Positions 6,001 through 19,004 of a stretch of 64,000 bases of DNA are shown piece after piece. The DNA comes from a virus (taxonomy: Duplodnaviria; Caudoviricetes). How positions within the stretch are numbered: position 1 is the stretch's first letter; every line of letters starts with the position of its first letter. Made by a program: the position numbers and the translations under genes. The stretch spans positions 7,344-71,343 of IMG/VR virus record IMGVR_UViG_3300043173_000386. One strand, given 5' to 3'. The notes below the pieces were generated by a model, which worked only from the letters and a program-made list of their open reading frames with translations, ran no database searches and had not been told where the DNA came from.

Positions 6001-8573
6001 GTGACACCGGCGCATTCCGCTGGATGAACGGATACATGGAACATGCGCGAGCTGGCCTGATTGATCGCTATGGCGTACCCGAGGAACTTATTCAGCGCGG
6101 CTTTGAGGCCACGGCACAGCAACGCGCGCTGCTGCGTGAAGGCTTGGAGTTCTTGAACCGGCTGTTTGAGGCCGGCGTAAGTTCACTGCAGGAGGCGGTT
6201 ATTATTCAGAAGATGCTGACCGGCGTTGATCTGGATGGCAACGAGGCGCTTATCACCAAAGCCGAATGGGCAGGCATAGCGGGAGAAATACGGGCCGCGG
6301 TTGATTCATTGGGTCTGGAAGCGGTCAGCTTGGGGCTAATCTCACGCGAGTCCTACGAGCGCAACCACGGCACCTATCTTCATCGCGTTTATGCAGAGCA
6401 TGAACTCGGCAAGGATCAAACGCTGTCACGCTTCATGGGGCGGCTGATGGCTGGCCGCAAACACGCGATCAAGGGCGATGCCTTGAAGGGCAGAGGTATT
6501 TTTCAGGAAGTGAGTCAGGAACGCTTGCTGAAAGATATTTCCAAAGCGGATCGCGAGACGTTTGAGCTTGGCCTTAAAAAGCGAAAGAGCCGCAAGCCTG
6601 ACGAATCACTGCTGACCAAGAAGTTCCGGATACTCGATCTGTTTGACGAGGGATCGTCACCGGACAATCAGACTCTCCGTGGCGTCGAAAACGTGGACAA
6701 CCCCAAGCGGCTCAAGAAGCGACTCATCATACCGGCCGACAAAGATATCCCGGCCCGACTGGCTAATTTCGAGGACCGCGGTGTTTACGAAGTCCGCAGA
6801 ATCAGCGGCAACAAGCTCGTTCTGTGGCGTGATTTCACCAAGGCCGAGCGTGTGCAGATGGGTGAGATTCTCGATGCGCGTTACACCATCGCCAAGACCT
6901 ATCACGTTCTCGCGCAAGACTTGGTTTCCGCTCGGTTCTTCAAGGACATTTCCGAAAATAAAGAATGGACTTGGCAAGGCACGACTGCCCCGCCTAACGA
7001 GATCGTTGCGCCAAAGAACACGGCCTTGCGCCACTATGTCGGCTTTGAATGGGTCTTGGTTCCGGGTGACACCATCGGCCCGAAAAGTAAAGTAAAAAAA
7101 TGGGGCGCTCTCGCCGGCAAGTACATTCGTGCTGAGATCTGGAAAGACCTCAACGAACTGGACGCGATGAATCAAAAGGGACCGTGGCAATTCCTCTTGA
7201 AACAGTGGAAGCTGAACAAGACCGCCCGGCATCCCGTTGTTCACATGAACAATGTAATTTCCAACCTGACGCTCATGGATATCATTGATGTCAGAGCGCG
7301 CGATCTCTGGCGCGGCATAAAGGAATACAACGATCGCGGCGAGCTGTACGAGTTGGCTAGACTTCATGGGGCTTTCGGTGCCTCTTATATTGATCAGGAA
7401 ATCAAGGATCAGATCTTGGAGCCGGTGCTTCGGGATATGTCAAAAGAAGCCAAAAAGGGCATGTACGAAGAAGGCTCGTTCCTGAAAAAACTACGATTTG
7501 TTGACCAGTATAGCCGAATGGCATCCGAGGGCATTCAGCGGCTTGGCAAGGCCATCGGGGACTTCGACCGCGCCAGCATCGAGTGGTATCGCACCGAGGA
7601 TGAGGTTTTCCGCATGGCGACCTTTATCCGCAAACTGGAACAGGGTGAGAGCCCACATGACGCGGCAGCCTTAGCCCGCGAACAGTTCCTAAATTACGAT
7701 ATCCGGGCTCCGTGGGTGAATACCGCGCGTAGATCGGTGCTGCCGTTCATTGCCTACACCTACCGGGCGGTGCCGGCGATTATCGACGCAATGGCTCGCA
7801 GGCCGTGGAAGTTCGCCAAATACGCACTGCTGGCCGAGCTGGCGAACGCCTTTGCCTACGCCGTTACGGATGCCGACGAGGAATGGGAGCGGGCGTCTCT
7901 GAGGCCCGAGGTACGGGGCTCAGTGTGGGTAGGCGGCGCTCCGCGAATGATGCGTCTGCCGGTCAACGACAAGCAGGGCAACCCCATATTCCTCGATATC
8001 CGGCGCTGGATCCCGGCCGGCGACGTATTCGATGTGGCACCCAATAATCCGCTGCCGATACCCGCCTGGTTGCACTTCGGCGGGCCGATAATGATTGCCG
8101 CTGAGTTTATGTTGAACAAACAGGCCTTTACCGGCGGCCAGATCGTTGACCCGTTGGTTGATACCTTGGGTGATAAAACACAGAAATACGGCGCATGGGC
8201 CTACCGCTCGTTCATGCCTTCCGCGCCGTGGATCTACGAATCATGGTATTGGCAGAAGATTGCTCGCGCCGCCACAGGCGGCCGGGACGCTCTCGGGCGG
8301 GACATTTCCGTACCGGGCGCATTGCTCTCGGCTACTGGTATCAAGGCCACCGGCCACGATGTTGAGCTCAATTTCGAGTATCGACGCCGGGAATTTGACA
8401 GAACCGAGCGCGCACTCCGCTATGCCATACGCCTGAATATCCGAGATCTGTCGCGCGGCCTCATAAACGCAAAAGAGCATGGCAAAATAGAGACTGATTT
8501 ACTCGACAAGCTACTCAAGCTCAACCAAAATCGCGCGCAGACCTTCGCTCCGTTGCTCAGGAGGCGTCAGTGA
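3..8573 (+). CDS. Giant polyvalent DarB-like virion/ejection protein (5'-truncated): N6-adenine MTase + Strawberry-notch-type SF2 helicase + RadC-like JAB domain + C-terminal large-polyvalent-protein-type region
   Basis: Frame is open from base 3 (ANINQGDQVLEPSAGTG), so the true start is upstream of the window. MTase motif I VLEPSAGTG and motif IV MNPPF; Sno motifs GDGTGLGKT, DEAH, QGFGRTHRSNQ; JAMM motif HNHPSGDSAPSAAD; directly followed by lysis genes. Confidence 0.9.
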   Translation, partial: ANINQGDQVLEPSAGTGSLVVQAQAQGASVIANELSLRRQTLLAQLGVNPRSEDAEFINSHIKGDEAPSVVLMNPPFSAAPPSRGGVKNKTRRGAQHVEAALKSLRPGGRLVAIVGKGMEIGKPTFRKWWERIGNQYTVRAAIRISGREYRKFGTTFDNVLIVIDKVAPGGDGISGQVTTVETVAELVPLLQEIRNGRPTLDKPTPRQSSIESGDLEITDPGRGRNDPRDTTDRPDVGQRATRASDSGSGDQATSETRPSTRGGDTKATDDVPGATRKRANDQSDNAEKNKGSDREGPSVDEDVPPTDSGVGRDISVSDLAKAIAKDGVSMADETLKGLVELFGGNKLKSFPAGFDEDSYQKSKKHFKQAAEDYRNVVGGIKQLIRRLAEVFGDGGKPIIDRFLNDLKEEQGLEVRVTQPVADPNTADGMVNSPTKEETKNVEPTKPDELTDDKYTVWEPTNSMPNAKPHPAEIVETASMSAIELPETDYRPVGLDKLIEEGVISDVQLEPIIHAGDAHRQLMPAENREDPDIRRGILIGDGTGLGKTRELLGIILDNFNQGRTKALYITKNTGLIEKLLEDMEVMGMDKKLLLRAKHFVVKDPIVAQNGILATTYSTIGNSLLDSERGGATEFNKGREVVEKTTGKRGVVTSPPTAKKAFVNVKFEDEATVRKDMSPTALQPIGEKVEQRTKNEQIIEWLGRDFDGVIVLDEAHLMGNSIEVQSGRGMTSISGMARAGMDLAMQLPNARVVYATATVASEVRQMAYLDRLGLWGRGTPYADKAKFIDDYITQGLSSMEQLARDMKGLGVGLARRISFKGVTNERLVHVLTDEQREIYNEIVRAWQSVLNNFNKAKSEEVTGAGKNKNANRNIQTVIWGFQSRFFNNIVTTMKMPSVLAHADQKLADGEAVVFQLVNTDESPQGKNIAAGLAAGIDFVDIDLTHKQQLITLVEKYFPTQQYVETIDAQGKSQWSPVQDSEGRPVENPEAVAMREQLIQNLRDMRVPPGALDMIVQHFGHENVSEITGRTKQNIINDQGEQAQIKKPSNPVAVQKFHDDEKRILVFSGAGAVGADYHADLKFKNQRKRNHYVAQPGWEAKATMQGFGRTHRSNQKQPPHEILASSNIKAEARFMSSIAKRLDQLGSLSAGSRESGGQGLFSAEDNLENEYGEAAVRDLFRAILSGRIEGITEENLQLEMGLENLTDDLNQIIESKLPDVKRFLNRLLSTTLERQDLYFDHFFEMLTANVEAAIAAGDYDQGLQNLLAESLEIVHEEVVFTDERTGAETKYMKLELTDPVTFTTFQEIVDLGVTSGRQIIKFAKNIRSGKLYAFYEALDFADTKTGNIKQRFRRVGINGPGALVQAEEIRTSDTQFGRKANYEALDVLAAKEEWQKQIDEAPTHRTWQENIISGLMHPINDRVVGKARIVRMLTNSGELLIGRMIAQKDLVQTLGNLEAAGAKVKADNQQILDRVLKSNFRYKLSNGWFLQRDVINGESRVWLKGPSGFGAEGNQLKSDGVFTEVVNGQTRFYIPTKKTLASQVLERVLESRDVVDEIPPDVDPLGEREIPYDMRPDATAGTRTAGAELLKISADRARAADQRPGEITTLATAINTELIQDHKTTLIGKTVKTGEDLATLAQVYRDPRYETLRYFVTDKDGTIIYQTGVSARLPGSTAAFAAGKNVLDLAIDIKKAVGRAGQHLWIMHNHPSGDSAPSAADLDMTRQISEALTGLRQRLTVDHLVIDSNEYSHIQAVIQENGRAQMKVRPNIKRNFGRDRLLEPALPHPLLNTQATSVGAVADIGAALQHGSGWVTVVGVTARGEVRALGEVHETELTKTGSLAKQLRKFGQSTGSDKIYLAGVNPEMMFTRNIFKKAAKWTKDLIELGFIEDVVGTDGISLRVSDSGVVPSIDFELGVNVKDQTFVVREQGDGKYESNITQKQTEIVEKTRKGQPLDRLLRFMFTGFGLFEDQFLNSKGEFKLGIIALERVKRLLTTAKFSDTGAFRWMNGYMEHARAGLIDRYGVPEELIQRGFEATAQQRALLREGLEFLNRLFEAGVSSLQEAVIIQKMLTGVDLDGNEALITKAEWAGIAGEIRAAVDSLGLEAVSLGLISRESYERNHGTYLHRVYAEHELGKDQTLSRFMGRLMAGRKHAIKGDALKGRGIFQEVSQERLLKDISKADRETFELGLKKRKSRKPDESLLTKKFRILDLFDEGSSPDNQTLRGVENVDNPKRLKKRLIIPADKDIPARLANFEDRGVYEVRRISGNKLVLWRDFTKAERVQMGEILDARYTIAKTYHVLAQDLVSARFFKDISENKEWTWQGTTAPPNEIVAPKNTALRHYVGFEWVLVPGDTIGPKSKVKKWGALAGKYIRAEIWKDLNELDAMNQKGPWQFLLKQWKLNKTARHPVVHMNNVISNLTLMDIIDVRARDLWRGIKEYNDRGELYELARLHGAFGASYIDQEIKDQILEPVLRDMSKEAKKGMYEEGSFLKKLRFVDQYSRMASEGIQRLGKAIGDFDRASIEWYRTEDEVFRMATFIRKLEQGESPHDAAALAREQFLNYDIRAPWVNTARRSVLPFIAYTYRAVPAIIDAMARRPWKFAKYALLAELANAFAYAVTDADEEWERASLRPEVRGSVWVGGAPRMMRLPVNDKQGNPIFLDIRRWIPAGDVFDVAPNNPLPIPAWLHFGGPIMIAAEFMLNKQAFTGGQIVDPLVDTLGDKTQKYGAWAYRSFMPSAPWIYESWYWQKIARAATGGRDALGRDISVPGALLSATGIKATGHDVELNFEYRRREFDRTERALRYAIRLNIRDLSRGLINAKEHGKIETDLLDKLLKLNQNRAQTFAPLLRRRQ

Positions 8574-8884
8574 ATGAAGGTAATCGTAAAAGTAGGGATG
8601 AGCTGATGGATTGGTTACTGCAATACCTTTGGGCGCCACTGGTGTTGGTTTGCGGATATTTCTGGCGAATGCTACACCGGCATGACAAAGAGATTGCCGA
8701 AGTCTCCGCTGCACACGAATCGACCGTTGCTGCTATAAACGACGCAAAGACCGGCCGCAAAGAGATCTACGATAAGATCGAAACCGTGCGAAAAGACCTC
8801 ACGGAGCAACACAACCAGCTCCGGAAAGACCAACGGGAAGATTTCAAAGATCTCCACAAAGCCATTGCAGGGATAGGTAAATGA
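8570..8884 (+). CDS. Membrane-anchored coiled-coil protein, putative holin/antiholin-type lysis protein
   Basis: One N-terminal hydrophobic segment (WLLQYLWAPLVLVCGYFW) then a charged coiled coil; GTGA overlap with the giant gene; immediately upstream of the endolysin. Confidence 0.6.
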   Translation: MNEGNRKSRDELMDWLLQYLWAPLVLVCGYFWRMLHRHDKEIAEVSAAHESTVAAINDAKTGRKEIYDKIETVRKDLTEQHNQLRKDQREDFKDLHKAIAGIGK

Positions 8885-9327
8885 GAGAAATTACCGATAT
8901 CATCGTCCATTGCAGCTTCACGAAGCCGAGGGAGAACCAAAGCCCGCGCATTGGGGTCGCGGAAATCAGACGATGGCACACAGATCCAAAGCCCAAGGGG
9001 CGTGGCTGGCGGGACATTGGCTATCATTATGTGATCAAACGCGATGGCACGTTGCAGCTCGGGCGGCCAATATCTCAGACCGGCGCCCATGTGAGGGGAC
9101 ACAATCTCACTTCCATCGGCATCTGCCTTGTTGGGGGGATGGACAAGCGTACCGGCAAAGCGGTCGATGATTACACCGACGAACAATGGCAGACGCTAAC
9201 TATGGTTGTTGGCGGACTGACCAATCAGTTTCATGGCTCCAAGGTGTCCGGTCACAACGACTGGACGAACGCGAAAACCTGTCCGAATTTCGATGTGAAA
9301 TTATGGTGGAAAACCATAGGAGGTTAG
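8881..9327 (+). CDS. Endolysin, N-acetylmuramoyl-L-alanine amidase (Amidase_2, T7-lysozyme-like)
   Basis: IIVHCS, GWRDIGYHYVIKRDG, GAHVRGHN, SIGICLVGG, GHND and KTCPNF zinc-amidase motifs. Confidence 0.95.
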   Translation: MREITDIIVHCSFTKPRENQSPRIGVAEIRRWHTDPKPKGRGWRDIGYHYVIKRDGTLQLGRPISQTGAHVRGHNLTSIGICLVGGMDKRTGKAVDDYTDEQWQTLTMVVGGLTNQFHGSKVSGHNDWTNAKTCPNFDVKLWWKTIGG

Positions 9328-9920: not shown

Positions 9921-10154
9921 ATGGAAGCCGTACTCATCCTGAAAATTATGAACATGGTGCAGGCCGGATTCGGTTGGCTTGCTGAACGTGGCATCCAAAA
10001 GGACAGGGTGCAATTCCTGATCGACCGGGCGGTACTCGAAAATCGCGATGTGACAACGGCCGAGGTACAGGTGGAACTTGACGCCACTCAGAAGGAGCTC
10101 GACGCGACCGCCGACGCTATCGCTGGCATGGAAGGTGGAGAGGAACCAACATGA
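9921..10154 (+). CDS. Hypothetical protein (77 aa), possible lysis accessory
   Basis: Tightly packed between neighbours; amphipathic N-terminus and acidic coiled C-terminus. Confidence 0.6.
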   Translation: MEAVLILKIMNMVQAGFGWLAERGIQKDRVQFLIDRAVLENRDVTTAEVQVELDATQKELDATADAIAGMEGGEEPT

Positions 10155-10531
10155 AATATCTGCTTCGCATATTTGCGCTGTTAGCCGTATCGACGCTGGT
10201 TTTTGCAGCCGGATCCAAGACGTTCACATGGATACCGCCAACCGAACGAGAGCCGGATCCGGACTCGGGGTTTGTGGCACCACTGCCGCAAGCCGAGATC
10301 GCTGAGTATCGGATCTACTGCGACGGTTCCGTAACACCCGTTCATGTGCAGCCCAACGAGCCGTTAAACACGGACACCTGGGAAGCGCCAAGCGGGACGT
10401 TTGCAACCGGCGTACATGATTGTGTGGCTACGACTGTTGATACGGAGGGGCAGGAATCCGATGTGTCGAATAGCGTAAATTTTATTGTCTCCCCGGAGCG
10501 CCCCAAAGCGCCTATTTTTGCGGTCCAGTAG
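10151..10531 (+). CDS. Secreted fibronectin-type-III-like protein
   Basis: Signal peptide MKYLLRIFALLAVSTLVFAA; FN3-like pattern TFTWIPP...EYRIYC...VATTVDTEGQESDVSNSV. Confidence 0.65.
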   Translation: MKYLLRIFALLAVSTLVFAAGSKTFTWIPPTEREPDPDSGFVAPLPQAEIAEYRIYCDGSVTPVHVQPNEPLNTDTWEAPSGTFATGVHDCVATTVDTEGQESDVSNSVNFIVSPERPKAPIFAVQ

Positions 10532-10560
10532 ATCCCGGCCCACCGGGCGGGCCACCGGGG

Positions 10561-10781
10561 AGGCCGCGTGGTAGCGGCTGTGCGATATTTAGATAAATTT
10601 GTTCCGGGGCCACAACCGGTAGCGGTAAGCTGCATCCGATGAGGTTGCGTGACTCTCCGTTTCGGTAATTCATCGGCGGTTGTTGAGGTCTAAATAAACT
10701 CGGCCGGGCAGGGTATTACACTTCGCTTGGATCGGAGTTTTGCGAAATTGCCTTTTCTAGTTGGCCCGGCCTCGGAACAAT
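10561..10781 (+). ncRNA. Candidate structured non-coding RNA (multi-branch with pseudoknot)
   Basis: Hand-derived helices: 10599-611/10768-780 (13 bp), 10612-618/10677-683, 10619-623/10629-633, 10636-642/10670-676, 10586-593/10689-696, 10706-709/10764-767, 10722-726/10742-746. G:U pairs favour the + strand. Confidence 0.5.
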
Positions 10782-10783
10782 CT

Positions 10784-11077
10784 TTACGGTTCAACCTTCT
10801 CGGTTGACATAGGATCACGCGGAACGCCTGTGATTCGCATGACCTCTCGGCACTTATCGAAGGCATCAAGTAGTTTCAGCAATCGTTCGACGCCATCACG
10901 CTTATCCTTGTCGGATATATCGGTTGCGGTGATTTTCTGAATCCACCGCTTGACCTCTTTCACTTCGATCAGGCGCAGCCCATGACTGAGCTGCACCAGC
11001 GCCCGGTACGCCGCCTCAAACTGTGGCCTGTCGTACTTGATCTCGGGGGTGTCTTTGTTGAATTGGGGTGTGTTCAC
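10784..11077 (-). CDS. Hypothetical protein
   Basis: Last gene of the leftward operon; 4-bp overlap with the SMC-like gene. Confidence 0.7.
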   Translation of the reverse strand: MNTPQFNKDTPEIKYDRPQFEAAYRALVQLSHGLRLIEVKEVKRWIQKITATDISDKDKRDGVERLLKLLDAFDKCREVMRITGVPRDPMSTEKVEP

Positions 11078-12480
11078 GTTACTTCCTCTCCGTTTTCAAG
11101 CCAATGCACCTTCACTGAATCCGGCAGTTTTGGCGGCTCTTTGAGTGTGCCAATCAACAGAATGTTGTTGTGTTCCTTGGCTACGCTGATCAACCATTTA
11201 ATCAGCTTGCCGCGGTTCGACAGATCGAGTACGTCCAGCCTGTCGAGTACCAGCAGACCGACCTCGGAAATGACGCTGATCGCTTCGGCAATGGTCGCTT
11301 GCGCCCGCCACTGGCTCGATTCAGACTGTAGGCCGAATGGGCGGTTATCCACCAATATATCCATCGTCGGTGTAACCACCGTCTGCGGCCATTGCGTCAG
11401 CATGGCGGTATTGCGGAGTCGGTCGTTCAGTGGTTTCAGCCTGTCGGCTACGATTTCACCGGGAATACCATCGGGCGCCAATGCCTCGGCAGCAGCAGCC
11501 CACGACGCCACAGAATGAGCGAAACCGGCCGCACGGTTGGCTACCGTGTCGGCGTGTTCGTTCCACTCCTGCTGGCGCTCAAGCAACTTCATGGCCTCTC
11601 CCGAGTTGTCGAAGGCCTCTTTGGCGTCAGTTACGGCCTGAGTCAGCTTTATCCGTTTCTTCTCGTCCTGCAGCGGGTGATCCTTGGTATCTTCCTCGCT
11701 GACCACGCGCACTGCGTTCTGCGTGTAATTCAGCCTGGCGCCGCAGCTCGGGCAATCGAATGATGTACCCATAGGCGAGCCCTTGAACGCCCCCATCGCC
11801 TGTTGTGCGGCAGCGTAGGCATCCTCGGCATCGTGACTCTCCTGTGTGACAGTCTTGAGCGTTTCCTCATCGACCTCTTTGTACTCGGGTTTCCAATCCT
11901 TTGCCTTCTCCGCGCCGTAGCGTTCGCCGGTCACGCCGGCCCACTCGCCTCTGGCTTCGGTCGCTTTCGACTTGGCCTCAGTGTGGGCGGCATCGAAGCC
12001 AGCGCGAAGGCTCGGCATGATCTTGTCGATCACAGGCTCAGGAATCTCCCGGTCCAACATTCGCTCTTTGACCAGCTCACGGTTCACGGTGATACCCAAC
12101 AGCCCGAACATGAACTTCCGGCGCTTCTTGGCATCCATCCAGCCATAACGGGTGGCATCGAGTAAATACTCGAGACTCACTGGCGGCTCAAGGCTCTCTG
12201 CCGTGCCTTTGGCAGTCGCCACATCACGCGCGTACATGCCAGTATCCATCACCACCTTGACCTGACCCTCTTTGGCGCCATCGGTAATCATCAGCTTGTA
12301 GTCACGCTTCATGCTGATCCGCTCAGTCTCACCCAACAGGCAATACCTCAAGGCTTCCTGCAGGGACGTTTTACCGGCCTCGTTGTGTCCAGCGAACAAG
12401 TGAACAATCGGCTCTTTCAGATCGACCTTTAATCGTCGCAGCCGCAGGAAGTTTGTTATTTCTATTCTTGTGATTTTCAA
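11074..12480 (-). CDS. SMC/Rad50-like ABC ATPase (recombination-associated)
   Basis: MKITRIEITNF start, Walker A AGHNEAGKTS, coiled coil with CPSCG hook, degenerate signature LQSESSQWR, Walker B LLVLDRLDVLD. Confidence 0.85.
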   Translation of the reverse strand: MKITRIEITNFLRLRRLKVDLKEPIVHLFAGHNEAGKTSLQEALRYCLLGETERISMKRDYKLMITDGAKEGQVKVVMDTGMYARDVATAKGTAESLEPPVSLEYLLDATRYGWMDAKKRRKFMFGLLGITVNRELVKERMLDREIPEPVIDKIMPSLRAGFDAAHTEAKSKATEARGEWAGVTGERYGAEKAKDWKPEYKEVDEETLKTVTQESHDAEDAYAAAQQAMGAFKGSPMGTSFDCPSCGARLNYTQNAVRVVSEEDTKDHPLQDEKKRIKLTQAVTDAKEAFDNSGEAMKLLERQQEWNEHADTVANRAAGFAHSVASWAAAAEALAPDGIPGEIVADRLKPLNDRLRNTAMLTQWPQTVVTPTMDILVDNRPFGLQSESSQWRAQATIAEAISVISEVGLLVLDRLDVLDLSNRGKLIKWLISVAKEHNNILLIGTLKEPPKLPDSVKVHWLENGEEVT

Positions 12481-12665
12481 GTTTGATCCTCGTAAAGTTC
12501 GTGGCGAAGAATGTCGATATCATCGTCTGCGTCAAAGCCAAGCCTGACCTCTTTCCCATGACCGGTATCCGGCAGGAACGCCAGCACGGAAATCCTGACC
12601 GGGTGCTTTCTTCCAGGCACGACGATATAAACTTCCTGACCGGGTTTTCTCCGTAGCGTCAGCAT
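12477..12665 (-). CDS. csrA: CsrA/RsmA-family translational regulator
   Basis: MLTLRRKPGQEVYI...VRISVL...EVRLGFDADDDIDILRHELY aligns with CsrA, retaining equivalents of L2, L4, R6, G9, R31, G33, A36, R44, E46, Y48. Confidence 0.85.
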   Translation of the reverse strand: MLTLRRKPGQEVYIVVPGRKHPVRISVLAFLPDTGHGKEVRLGFDADDDIDILRHELYEDQT

Positions 12666-12668
12666 TCC

Positions 12669-13760
12669 TTACTCCATTGAGAACTCGTTGTCCGTTGGGC
12701 CGGGATCACCGTCCGGTGGTGGAGGCGGGGAAGCAGAGGACTCTTTTTCCGACGCCGCTTGTGTGTCCTGGGCTGGCGCCGGCTGCTTGGGCTCGGACTC
12801 CGCTCCCCCACCAGTTGACTCTTTCTTGGCAGCGGTGCCACGCTTCTTTCGGAACGTGCCATCGTTGTTGAATACCGGGCCGTTCTCATTGGAAACGTGC
12901 GACTCCGGATCGTACTGCACTCCATTGGCATCGCGGATTACATCGGTAGAACCACCGCGGACCTCGGGTATGGCATCGTCAGTGTCCAGCACTTCGTAGT
13001 CGCCGGCGATAGCACGATCAAGCGATTGATCGGCACCACTGGCACCACGCTCGTCCAGATTGATACCGCGCGCCAGATCGACAGAGATTGGACAGTATTT
13101 TGCCAGCCGGCGCCATGCAGTCTTGCGTCCCATTTCGACAAAGTGATCTTTCCAAGGCCCGTACTCGCCCTTGGACTGCGACCGCTTCATGGTCAGCTCG
13201 ACAGCTTCGCGCGTCATTACCTCAAAGGCGTGGCCGCCATCTTTCATGTGTGCAACAGCGTAGAAGTGCGTTACCGGGCCTCGATCTCCGTCTGCCGGCT
13301 TGTGTTCCAACCGCTCGACCAATCCATACATATAATCGAAGTGATCGTTCTGGCAGACCTCATGCGCCGCGATGCTCACTATCTGACCGGAACGCCGCGC
13401 CAGATCAATCAGGCCTTTGTAGCCAATAATTACCTGAACGTCCGTGCGGTTCTTCTGCTTGTTGCGGAACGGAATCAGATAGGCGTGGCCGAGTACCGTG
13501 TTCGGCTCAAGTCCCATCATGGTGCATTGCATGATGCCGCCAATCAGAGAAGGCACGTAGCAGTTCTTCAATCCGGGCGTTGTGATTGCTACTTGGGTAG
13601 CCACTTGCAGCAGCCGTTCGGCTGACAAGTGTTTCGGCAACGCCGCCATGATCGCGTCTTTGTTTTGCTCAAGCAGATATTTCACCTGATCCTTGTGGTT
13701 CATTTGCGTGAGATCCTTCTTTCCCTCGGTTTTCTGTAGGTCTTTAATGTTTGTAGCCAT
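12669..13760 (-). CDS. recT: RecT-family single-strand annealing protein
   Basis: LPKHLSAERL, GLEPNTVLGHAYLIPF, QVIIGYKGLIDLARRSGQI, MGRKTAWRRLAKY; acidic disordered C-tail. Confidence 0.95.
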   Translation of the reverse strand: MATNIKDLQKTEGKKDLTQMNHKDQVKYLLEQNKDAIMAALPKHLSAERLLQVATQVAITTPGLKNCYVPSLIGGIMQCTMMGLEPNTVLGHAYLIPFRNKQKNRTDVQVIIGYKGLIDLARRSGQIVSIAAHEVCQNDHFDYMYGLVERLEHKPADGDRGPVTHFYAVAHMKDGGHAFEVMTREAVELTMKRSQSKGEYGPWKDHFVEMGRKTAWRRLAKYCPISVDLARGINLDERGASGADQSLDRAIAGDYEVLDTDDAIPEVRGGSTDVIRDANGVQYDPESHVSNENGPVFNNDGTFRKKRGTAAKKESTGGGAESEPKQPAPAQDTQAASEKESSASPPPPPDGDPGPTDNEFSME

Positions 13761-18592: not shown

Positions 18593-19004
18593 GGTTCAAT
18601 CCTTCGCTGGCGATCTCACGCACACCCTCGACCACATGGCGCATATTGCTGGCACTGATCGCCGTGAGGCTCAGGCCGGCAGCTTTCAGCACTTCCTCGG
18701 CCTTCTTGAAGTCGGGCTCAGGAAATACCGTCAGCGGATAGGCGTCGGCCCATTGCACGATGCGATAAAGCGCAGCCTGGTACTGTTCGATCTCATCGTC
18801 GGTGCTGCGGTGGTACGGCCCGGTAATGGTGCGGGACTCAAGCCAGCGCATCGGGTCAAGCTCTGTGTCGAACTTCACGCTGTACAGGCAGCCATTCATC
18901 GAGACAATGGGGATCGTGGCGTCCTCGTCCTTCTCGTCGCCGCAGAGGTACATTCCGGGGTTATCGAGCATGGCCTGAATATCGGGCGGTATCTGGTCAG
19001 TCAT
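18582..19004 (-). CDS. Hypothetical protein
   Basis: ATG 19004 in ATGA overlap; C-terminal WADAYPLTVFPEPD...ISASNMRHV pattern typical of phage early proteins. Confidence 0.65.
   Translation of the reverse strand: MTDQIPPDIQAMLDNPGMYLCGDEKDEDATIPIVSMNGCLYSVKFDTELDPMRWLESRTITGPYHRSTDDEIEQYQAALYRIVQWADAYPLTVFPEPDFKKAEEVLKAAGLSLTAISASNMRHVVEGVREIASEGLNRDA

Follow-up and report, generated by a model that had tools for sequence, protein, structure and literature searches.

The convergent junction and its neighbourhood

The window analysed here is a stretch of 64,000 nucleotides, which corresponds to bases 7344-71343 of a 71,343-bp IMG/VR virus record (IMGVR_UViG_3300043173_000386) that is rated complete. 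On its left side, the plus strand carries a late/lysis operon with a giant ORF ending at 8573, an Amidase_2 endolysin (8881-9327, +), four small genes and, in last position, a gene for a 126-aa protein (10151-10531, +) that belongs to no Pfam or PHROG family. The operon that faces it on the minus strand comprises RecT (12669-13760, -), CsrA (12477-12665, -), an AAA/SbcC-like ATPase (11074-12480, -) and, as its last gene, a 97-aa protein (10784-11077, -). Because these operons converge there, the 252-nt spacer (10532-10783) between the gene ends at 10531 (+) and 10784 (-) is the meeting point of the late/lysis and recombination transcription units. This bears out the placement between convergent operons that a preliminary description of this DNA had given to a candidate structured RNA. 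The 97-aa protein itself was considered as an RNA binder of the FinO/ProQ kind and rejected: it has no Pfam or PHROG family, AlphaFold models it (pLDDT 74) as a helical hairpin of generic type, for which the PDB has no match at E <= 0.001, and no RNA-binding lead emerged.

Related loci were gathered through 26 relatives of the 97-aa protein in metagenome protein sets, and the contigs obtained are all syntenic. They share the order RecT, CsrA, AAA, a few small genes, the 97-aa gene and then the convergent lysis cassette. The RecT-CsrA-AAA/SbcC-like block is kept in every syntenic relative whose locus spans it, with a CsrA of 62-74 aa and an ATPase of 467-469 aa that is 70-98% identical to that of the window where aligned; phage csrA is thus a fixed component of the recombination operon. 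The last gene of the late operon varies among otherwise syntenic phages: it encodes 126 aa in the window (10151-10531), 198 aa with a weak fn3 match in L006 (2848-3444), 89 + 383 aa in L008 (2980-4560), 411 aa in L010 (3020-4255) and 256 aa in L017 (1701-2471). These variable genes gave no Pfam match at gathering level and no PHROG family, and the place just upstream of the RNA element looks like a hot spot for accessory genes.

Structure, covariation and distribution of the element

Two covariance models were made, R1 for domain 1 and R2 for the full length, and the R2 match in the window covers 10597-10781 (+) with 178.7 bits and an E of 1.5e-41. The element is closed by P1, a 13-bp helix in which the 5' arm (10599-10611, +) pairs with the 3' arm (10768-10780, +); the arms form a 13-nt inverted repeat, 92% complementary and with one G:U on the plus strand, and 156 nt lie between them. 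Domain 1 (10612-10683, +), which R1 matches, is made of P2 (10612-10618 with 10677-10683, +), the P2a hairpin (10619-10633, +), and P3 (10636-10643 with 10669-10676, +), which carries the variable hairpin P3b (10648-10664, +). Domain 2 is variable and is closed by P4, where GGUC (10687-10690, +) pairs with GGCC (10763-10766). RNAalifold independently predicts P5, which pairs GCAGGG (10708-10713, +) with UUUUGC (10738-10743).

The plus strand of 10561-10781 folds with a minimum free energy (MFE) of -84.6 kcal/mol against -71.65 +/- 4.55 kcal/mol for its shuffles (z -2.85), and this MFE fold contains the closing helix and the three-way junction, while the minus strand reaches -66.5 kcal/mol only. 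Folded alone, the window element gives a z of -3.6; the comparison with shuffles proposed in the preliminary description came out in favour of a structured RNA, but it is above all conservation and covariation in relatives that set the fold apart from chance. Much of the fold drawn there was also recovered: the closing helix with its single G:U is present, lies in the MFE fold and covaries in relatives; Arm A is present with its ACAACCG/CGGUUGU stem, its GUAGC-GGUAA-GCUGC hairpin and its CCGAUGA/UCAUCGG stem, joined in the three-way junction; and the sequence that had been reported to be repeated, GGTAGCGG, is found at 10570 and 10618.

Eight further distinct copies of the element, 160-228 nt long, occupy the same place in syntenic contigs of uncultured phages. 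They are carried by L004/L005, L008/L009, L010-L012, L014, L017, L018 and L058, to which a pattern scan of metagenomes added L031. The R1 model matches domain 1 in all nine members (38.8-89.7 bits), and every member folds by itself into the same architecture, with a z of -2.8 to -7.4 against its own shuffles. The covariation in homologous intergenic regions that had been suggested as a check was found with nine sequences. In a plain MAFFT alignment of seven of them, RNAalifold recovers P1, P2, P2a and P3, and 13 of the 38 pairs show compensatory changes. In the alignment of all nine, which is fitted to R2 and so favours structure, 93.9% of pair cells are standard versus 82.0 +/- 1.1% in shuffles, and compensatory changes occur in 19 of 40 pairs versus 10.5 +/- 1.9, a value reached by 0 of 500 shuffles. 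Sliding the partners by 1-3 columns leaves just 2-6 compensatory pairs. The MAFFT-only alignment and these slid-partner controls argue for a real covariation signal.

The helices contribute to it unequally. P1 has compensatory changes in nine of its 13 pairs and 96.6% of its cells paired, and P2, P2a and P3 also covary in the nine-sequence alignment. In the second domain, P4, a helix that the preliminary description had not drawn, shows compensatory changes in three of its four pairs (86.1% of cells paired), and P5 (GCARRG with YUUUGC) is kept in seven of the nine members (85.7% of cells paired) with one-sided changes only. The Arm B that had been drawn instead does exist in the window, where GGGC/GCCC, AGGGUA/UGCCUU and UUCGC/GCGAA are all found, but across the family it is 50.0% paired versus 51.5% in shuffles, in an alignment where the interior of domain 2 is matched by sequence only. 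As far as this alignment tells, the conserved pairings of the second domain are P4 and P5, which replace Arm B. The two long-range pairings of the preliminary description fared similarly. The 8-nt pairing proposed as a pseudoknot (10586-10593/10689-10696) is present, and it is above chance in the window only; it is not conserved, as the nearest relative, L004 (~95% identical), has two uncompensated changes that break it, and it is absent elsewhere. The helix said to compete with P1, in which GGCCGGGC and GCCCGGCC pair at 10702-10709/10764-10771, is likewise present in the window, but its positions are 62.5% paired across the family versus 64.5% in shuffles.

The paired columns also tell the strands apart, as they contain 42 G:U cells versus 4 A:C, and the sense MFE is 9-29 kcal/mol below the antisense one in every member. 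This asymmetry and the better folding of the sense strand make the window's plus strand, that is, the sense of the late/lysis operon, the functional one. Taken with the compensation inside helices, the same asymmetry argues against a purely double-stranded DNA role. The plus-strand structured RNA of the preliminary description finds its support here. Coding potential was considered and rejected: the members measure 157-225 nt between the P1 ends, they differ by lengths that are not multiples of 3, and the variation lies in hairpin lengths. Comparison of the nine members shows them to be a genuine RNA family, selected for secondary structure, on the strand of the late operon. The earlier failure to assign a known family is borne out by Rfam 15: nowhere in the window does any of its models reach gathering score (0 matches), and when E up to 10 is allowed on 10480-10850, the sole match is SCARNA21, a chance match of 11.8 bits for a cut-off of 60 bits. 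The element is a new one, matched by no Rfam family or described phage RNA.

Conservation is not limited to the helices. Inside P3, the 5' strand of an internal loop, UGAGGUUGC (10640-10648, +), is invariant in the MAFFT alignment of the nine members, and its 3' strand, GGUAAUUC (10664-10671, +), is nearly so: only its second base varies, and columns G69 and T71-C76 are invariant. UGAGGUUGC and G-UAAUUC (10664, 10666-10671) thus face each other unchanged in all nine members. The invariant loop nucleotides number sixteen, next to a domain 2 that can barely be aligned. That domain has a conserved sequence of its own at 10729-10752 (+), with GGAUCGGAG, UUUUGCG and UUGCC, recognisable in seven to eight of the nine members, while the remainder varies in length and sequence between members. 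A duplex-energy search for trans targets of this motif in about 5 kb around each member found no homologously placed site.

The element is single-copy in its own 71-kb phage record and it is missing from several syntenic relatives: R1 finds no match in L006/L007, where the spacer measures 53 nt, or in L057 (102-nt spacer), and one further syntenic contig has a 14-nt gap only. It is therefore dispensable. The L006 spacer (2795-2847) retains a sequence that resembles the P1 3' arm, GGUCUCGGAAUCU in the RNA sense, beside the stop codon of the 97-aa gene, and this remnant suggests that L006 lost the element by deletion rather than never having had it. At the same convergent junction, L015 (3634-3733) has a reduced hairpin of 100 nt with a P1-like closing helix of 13 bp and no domain 1, in which motifs similar to GAUCNGGAG and UUUGCC have exchanged places; this may be a relative of the element that has degenerated or been rearranged. 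Two relatives of the 126-aa gene (L002 and L003) and a distant relative of the AAA gene (L059) have no element, either locally or in their whole records.

Beyond the syntenic contigs, the searches returned little. Cultured phages include no close DNA relative, and the nearest protein matches are only 34-50% identical. Further members were sought in IMG/VR with single flanking proteins, with protein alignments and with core patterns, and none was found. The core pattern has no true copy in 185,579 species genomes, and pattern scans of genome contigs and metagenomes gave one true member, L031. L061 was discarded as a chance match, apparently within coding sequence, and so were L021 (1611-1678), L028 (3979-4046), L036, L038 and L053 (19-29 bits with R1), which meet the pattern by chance in one GC-rich region; this region is highly similar across the five soil-bacterial or metagenome contigs, looks protein-coding and is unrelated. 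The distribution is narrow, with nine sequences in one clade of uncultured, probably proteobacterial phages.

Position at the end of the late operon and possible functions

Whichever gene comes last in the late operon, the element starts 2-65 nt past its stop codon. Where this gene is of the 126-aa type, a spacer of 45-65 nt with a small hairpin precedes the element; where it is of the 256-411-aa types, its stop codon lies 2-5 nt from P1, and in L010, L017 and L018 there is no space for a promoter. Because of this lack of promoter space in relatives, and because a scan for sigma-70-like promoters found none in the window, the RNA is most simply part of the late transcript. The upstream hairpin of the window, P0 (GGCCGC-GUGGUA-GCGGCU; 10562-10579, +), lies in a 65-nt spacer and holds the first copy of GGUAGCGG, which occurs twice in the window and twice in L015. 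P0 is kept in L004 through two pair-preserving changes and similar G-rich hairpins are found in L031, L014 and L015; P0 is missing from members in which the element directly adjoins the stop codon. The G-rich hairpin or repeat GUGGUAGCGGCUGYGCG lies between the 126-aa-type gene and the element (window 10562-10584; L015:3740-3790), and it has two weak look-alikes elsewhere in the window, at 18619 (-) and 60562 (+).

On the other side, P1 is followed by a U-rich tail, UCUUUACG (10781-10788, +), which overlaps the stop codon of the convergent gene. Over the nine members, 41 of the 72 bases in the 8 nt past P1 are U (57%), compared with 37% on the antisense side, and every member has a run of 3-7 U, in three different downstream contexts; the window's own tail (UCUUUA) is weak. 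The tail reaches the convergent gene's stop codon in six members. In the three others, L014, L018 and L031, a conserved ORF of about 100 aa starts 5-8 nt past P1, and its only Shine-Dalgarno-like purines (GAGGGA, GGGAA) lie in the P1 3' arm. This ORF (L014:2792-3094, -; L018:2806-3150, -; L031, about 400-718, -) has an N-terminus of the form M-I/L-I-K-x-E-x-E-L-Q-H and no Pfam, PHROG or Atlas lead, and it is present in one contig from which the RNA element is absent. Near or overlapping its 3' end there is a second short frame, preceded by a Shine-Dalgarno sequence, for a peptide of about 21-29 aa that is very basic (MACRDRMKHRRKKRK...).

From the structure, strand, position, conservation and U-rich tail that we observe, we infer, tentatively, that P1 and its tail would quite possibly act in termination and RNA stability, as a non-canonical intrinsic terminator and 3'-end protector whose invariant loops would bind a specific partner. 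Late/lysis transcription (+) would proceed through the last late gene, and the ~185-nt RNA would be the 3' end of the transcript. The GC-rich P1 would close around two pre-folded domains, that is, domain 1 with its three-way junction and invariant internal loop, and the variable, P4-closed domain 2. P1 and the U-rich tail would then stop or pause transcription at the junction with the convergent early operon, leaving a compact RNA that may resist exonucleases, and the invariant unpaired bases (UGAGGUUGC facing GGUAAUUC; GGAG..UUUGCG..UUGCC) would bind a putative partner, most likely a protein. As in a canonical terminator, a GC-rich stem (P1, 11-13 bp) precedes U residues, with at least 3 U within 8 nt in all nine members; the short loop of about 3-8 nt of such a terminator is replaced by 156 nt between the arms. 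A simple terminator scan found no site at the element, since the arms of P1 enclose 156 nt of structure as their 'loop', which is far from canonical. Weighed against the terminator reading are the weak tail of the window, this long loop, the dispensability of the element and the three members in which the ORF lies just past P1, where at least partial read-through of transcription is required.

The same observations can be read otherwise. If the element acted purely in cis, as a partnerless terminator, insulator or 3'-end stabiliser, a bulky hairpin would prevent the collision of the convergent units and shield the lysis mRNA from 3' exonucleases. Its location exactly where the units converge, with the opposing gene's stop codon 3 nt away, its GC-rich P1 with a U-rich tail and the fact that it can be lost would all suit such a role; a stabiliser, however, needs neither sixteen invariant unpaired nucleotides nor a conserved three-way junction nor a conserved 24-nt motif, and relatives lacking the element cope with a 53-nt spacer, so that we regard this simpler account as doubtful. 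A conditional switch, either a riboswitch or a protein-controlled attenuator, also strikes us as unlikely. Its interior would sense a ligand or a protein and set the stability of P1, which would gate read-through and translation beyond the late operon, with read-through into the ~100-aa gene or, where this gene is missing, antisense into the early operon. The covarying structured domain of a riboswitch or leader is indeed there, with an aptamer-like layout in which P1 closes a multi-helix junction, the internal-loop and junction bases are invariant and the peripheral hairpins vary in length; the U-rich tail behind P1 and the ORF start just past it in L014, L018 and L031, with its only Shine-Dalgarno-like purines inside the 3' arm, fit as well, and an S-box riboswitch reported to govern an antisense RNA at a convergent operon offers a precedent (PMC2566862). 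A position that could be that of a 5' leader is seen in three of the nine members; in the window and five others the next gene is convergent and no gene follows on the same strand. Moreover, the ~100-aa gene exists without the element in one contig, no conserved alternative pairing was found, the competing helix of the preliminary description being at shuffle level, and the neighbouring genes give no clue to a ligand.

The neighbourhood of csrA raises the idea of a decoy or sponge, in which the GGA motifs of domain 2 would titrate the phage CsrA (12477-12665, -) in the manner of CsrB or RsmZ. CsrA is encoded two to five genes away in all syntenic relatives, and domain 2 has GGA(G) in most members, with two adjacent GGA in the window and in L008. 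Yet GGA is not enriched, with 2-5 per RNA versus 2.9-3.7 expected from composition and as many on the antisense strand, and the many GGA in hairpin loops that mark CsrB and RsmZ are not seen; the nearest relative, L004, has GCA for one of the two GGA, L006 has CsrA and no element, and domain 1, the most conserved part, has no loop GGA. We therefore consider a CsrA sponge very unlikely. Still less credible, to the point of being highly improbable, is a role at the DNA level, where the 13-bp inverted repeats would belong to a MITE-like insertion, a recombination or attachment site, or a replication or packaging signal. These terminal repeats do resemble transposon ends, and the element is patchily present among syntenic genomes, with the P1-3'-arm-like remnant in L006. 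Against this, the genome holds a single copy and the core pattern has no true copy in the 185,579 species genomes, whereas MITEs have multiple dispersed copies (the pattern matches in genome contigs are chance or one unrelated coding gene); the 42 G:U versus 4 A:C cells and the compensation within helices indicate selection on one RNA strand; and neither a tyrosine integrase nor a reverse transcriptase was found.

Three more specific identities were tried and rejected. A retron msr-msd or DGR RNA is excluded, as the complete 71-kb record has no PF00078 match (with positive search controls); an attP site was excluded, with no tyrosine integrase; and so was a tRNA- or tmRNA-like RNA, for which ARAGORN finds 0 genes in the window. 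Nor does anything hint at self-cleavage.

To our knowledge, a role is known for few phage structured RNAs, and hardly any has been described for large uncultured proteobacterial phages with a giant polyvalent protein, CsrA and RecT. This one stands out by its clear covariation, by being tied to one strand and to one place at the end of the lysis cassette, and by unpaired bases whose invariance calls for a partner. The motif is new and solid and has a position-specific candidate role, but it is represented by nine sequences only. Even as a terminator-closed 3'-UTR RNA, the reading that we prefer, it would have an unusual architecture, with a terminator stem around a two-domain fold. It could also, though this is improbable, belong to a new class of sensing RNAs placed where the operons of a phage genome converge, or be a released accessory decoy against a host factor or defence system. 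For a sensing RNA, a bound metabolite or a phage or host protein would set the choice between a stop at P1 and run-on, which would activate the accessory gene if present and, if not, direct antisense RNA into the recombination/CsrA operon. Should the element turn out to be a conditional terminator or a decoy, it would reveal a new means by which phages keep early and late transcription apart or link them, or manipulate their host.

Comparison with known systems

The closest known systems are intrinsic (Rho-independent) terminators and the 3'-UTR-derived small RNAs that end in them, such as those of the CpxQ, SroC and DapZ types. Like these RNAs, the element directly follows the last ORF of an operon and has a GC-rich stem then U residues, and it would yield a stable RNA that shares the 3' end of the mRNA. 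In contrast to intrinsic terminators, its stem encloses 156 nt of conserved two-domain structure rather than a loop of 3-8 nt; and in contrast to terminator-ended small RNAs, its U tract is short in several members and no seed or target was found. The lambda sib element (retroregulation) and other 3' stabiliser hairpins also set the fate of an mRNA from its 3' end and, as here, lie beyond the last gene of a phage operon; these are simple extended hairpins, either recognised by RNase III or acting as passive barriers, whereas the element is a multi-domain fold with invariant unpaired bases. The phi29 pRNA (RF00044), too, is a phage RNA of about this size, whose 5' and 3' ends pair and which has a three-way junction. 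The element differs from it in having no Rfam match, in sitting at the end of the lysis cassette and in showing no complementary loop pair, and, since it is absent from the syntenic L006/L007 and L057, it is not essential as the pRNA is.

With riboswitch aptamers, the element shares a P1-closed junction, invariant loop and junction bases and variable peripheral stems, and in three of the nine members its P1 3' arm overlaps the ribosome site of the downstream ORF. Its place at a convergent junction recalls the S-box riboswitch reported to control antisense transcription at the ubiG operon (PMC2566862). Unlike riboswitches, most members have no downstream gene, and no conserved alternative helix, ligand clue or Rfam riboswitch match was found. 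Comparative genomics has also revealed orphan structured RNAs linked to phages or prophages (Weinberg et al. 2017, PMC5737381), among them GOLLD and ROOL (PMC12286853). The element is far smaller than GOLLD and ROOL and does not sit beside tRNA genes, and it has no sequence or structure match to the orphan RNAs held in Rfam 15 (GOLLD, ROOL and the Weinberg motifs). As these RNAs do (PMC5737381, PMC12286853), it combines a phage location and covariation support with dispensability among relatives and no assigned function. As regards function, the element looks like a variation on known kinds, namely a terminator-closed 3'-UTR RNA or else a P1-closed sensing domain.
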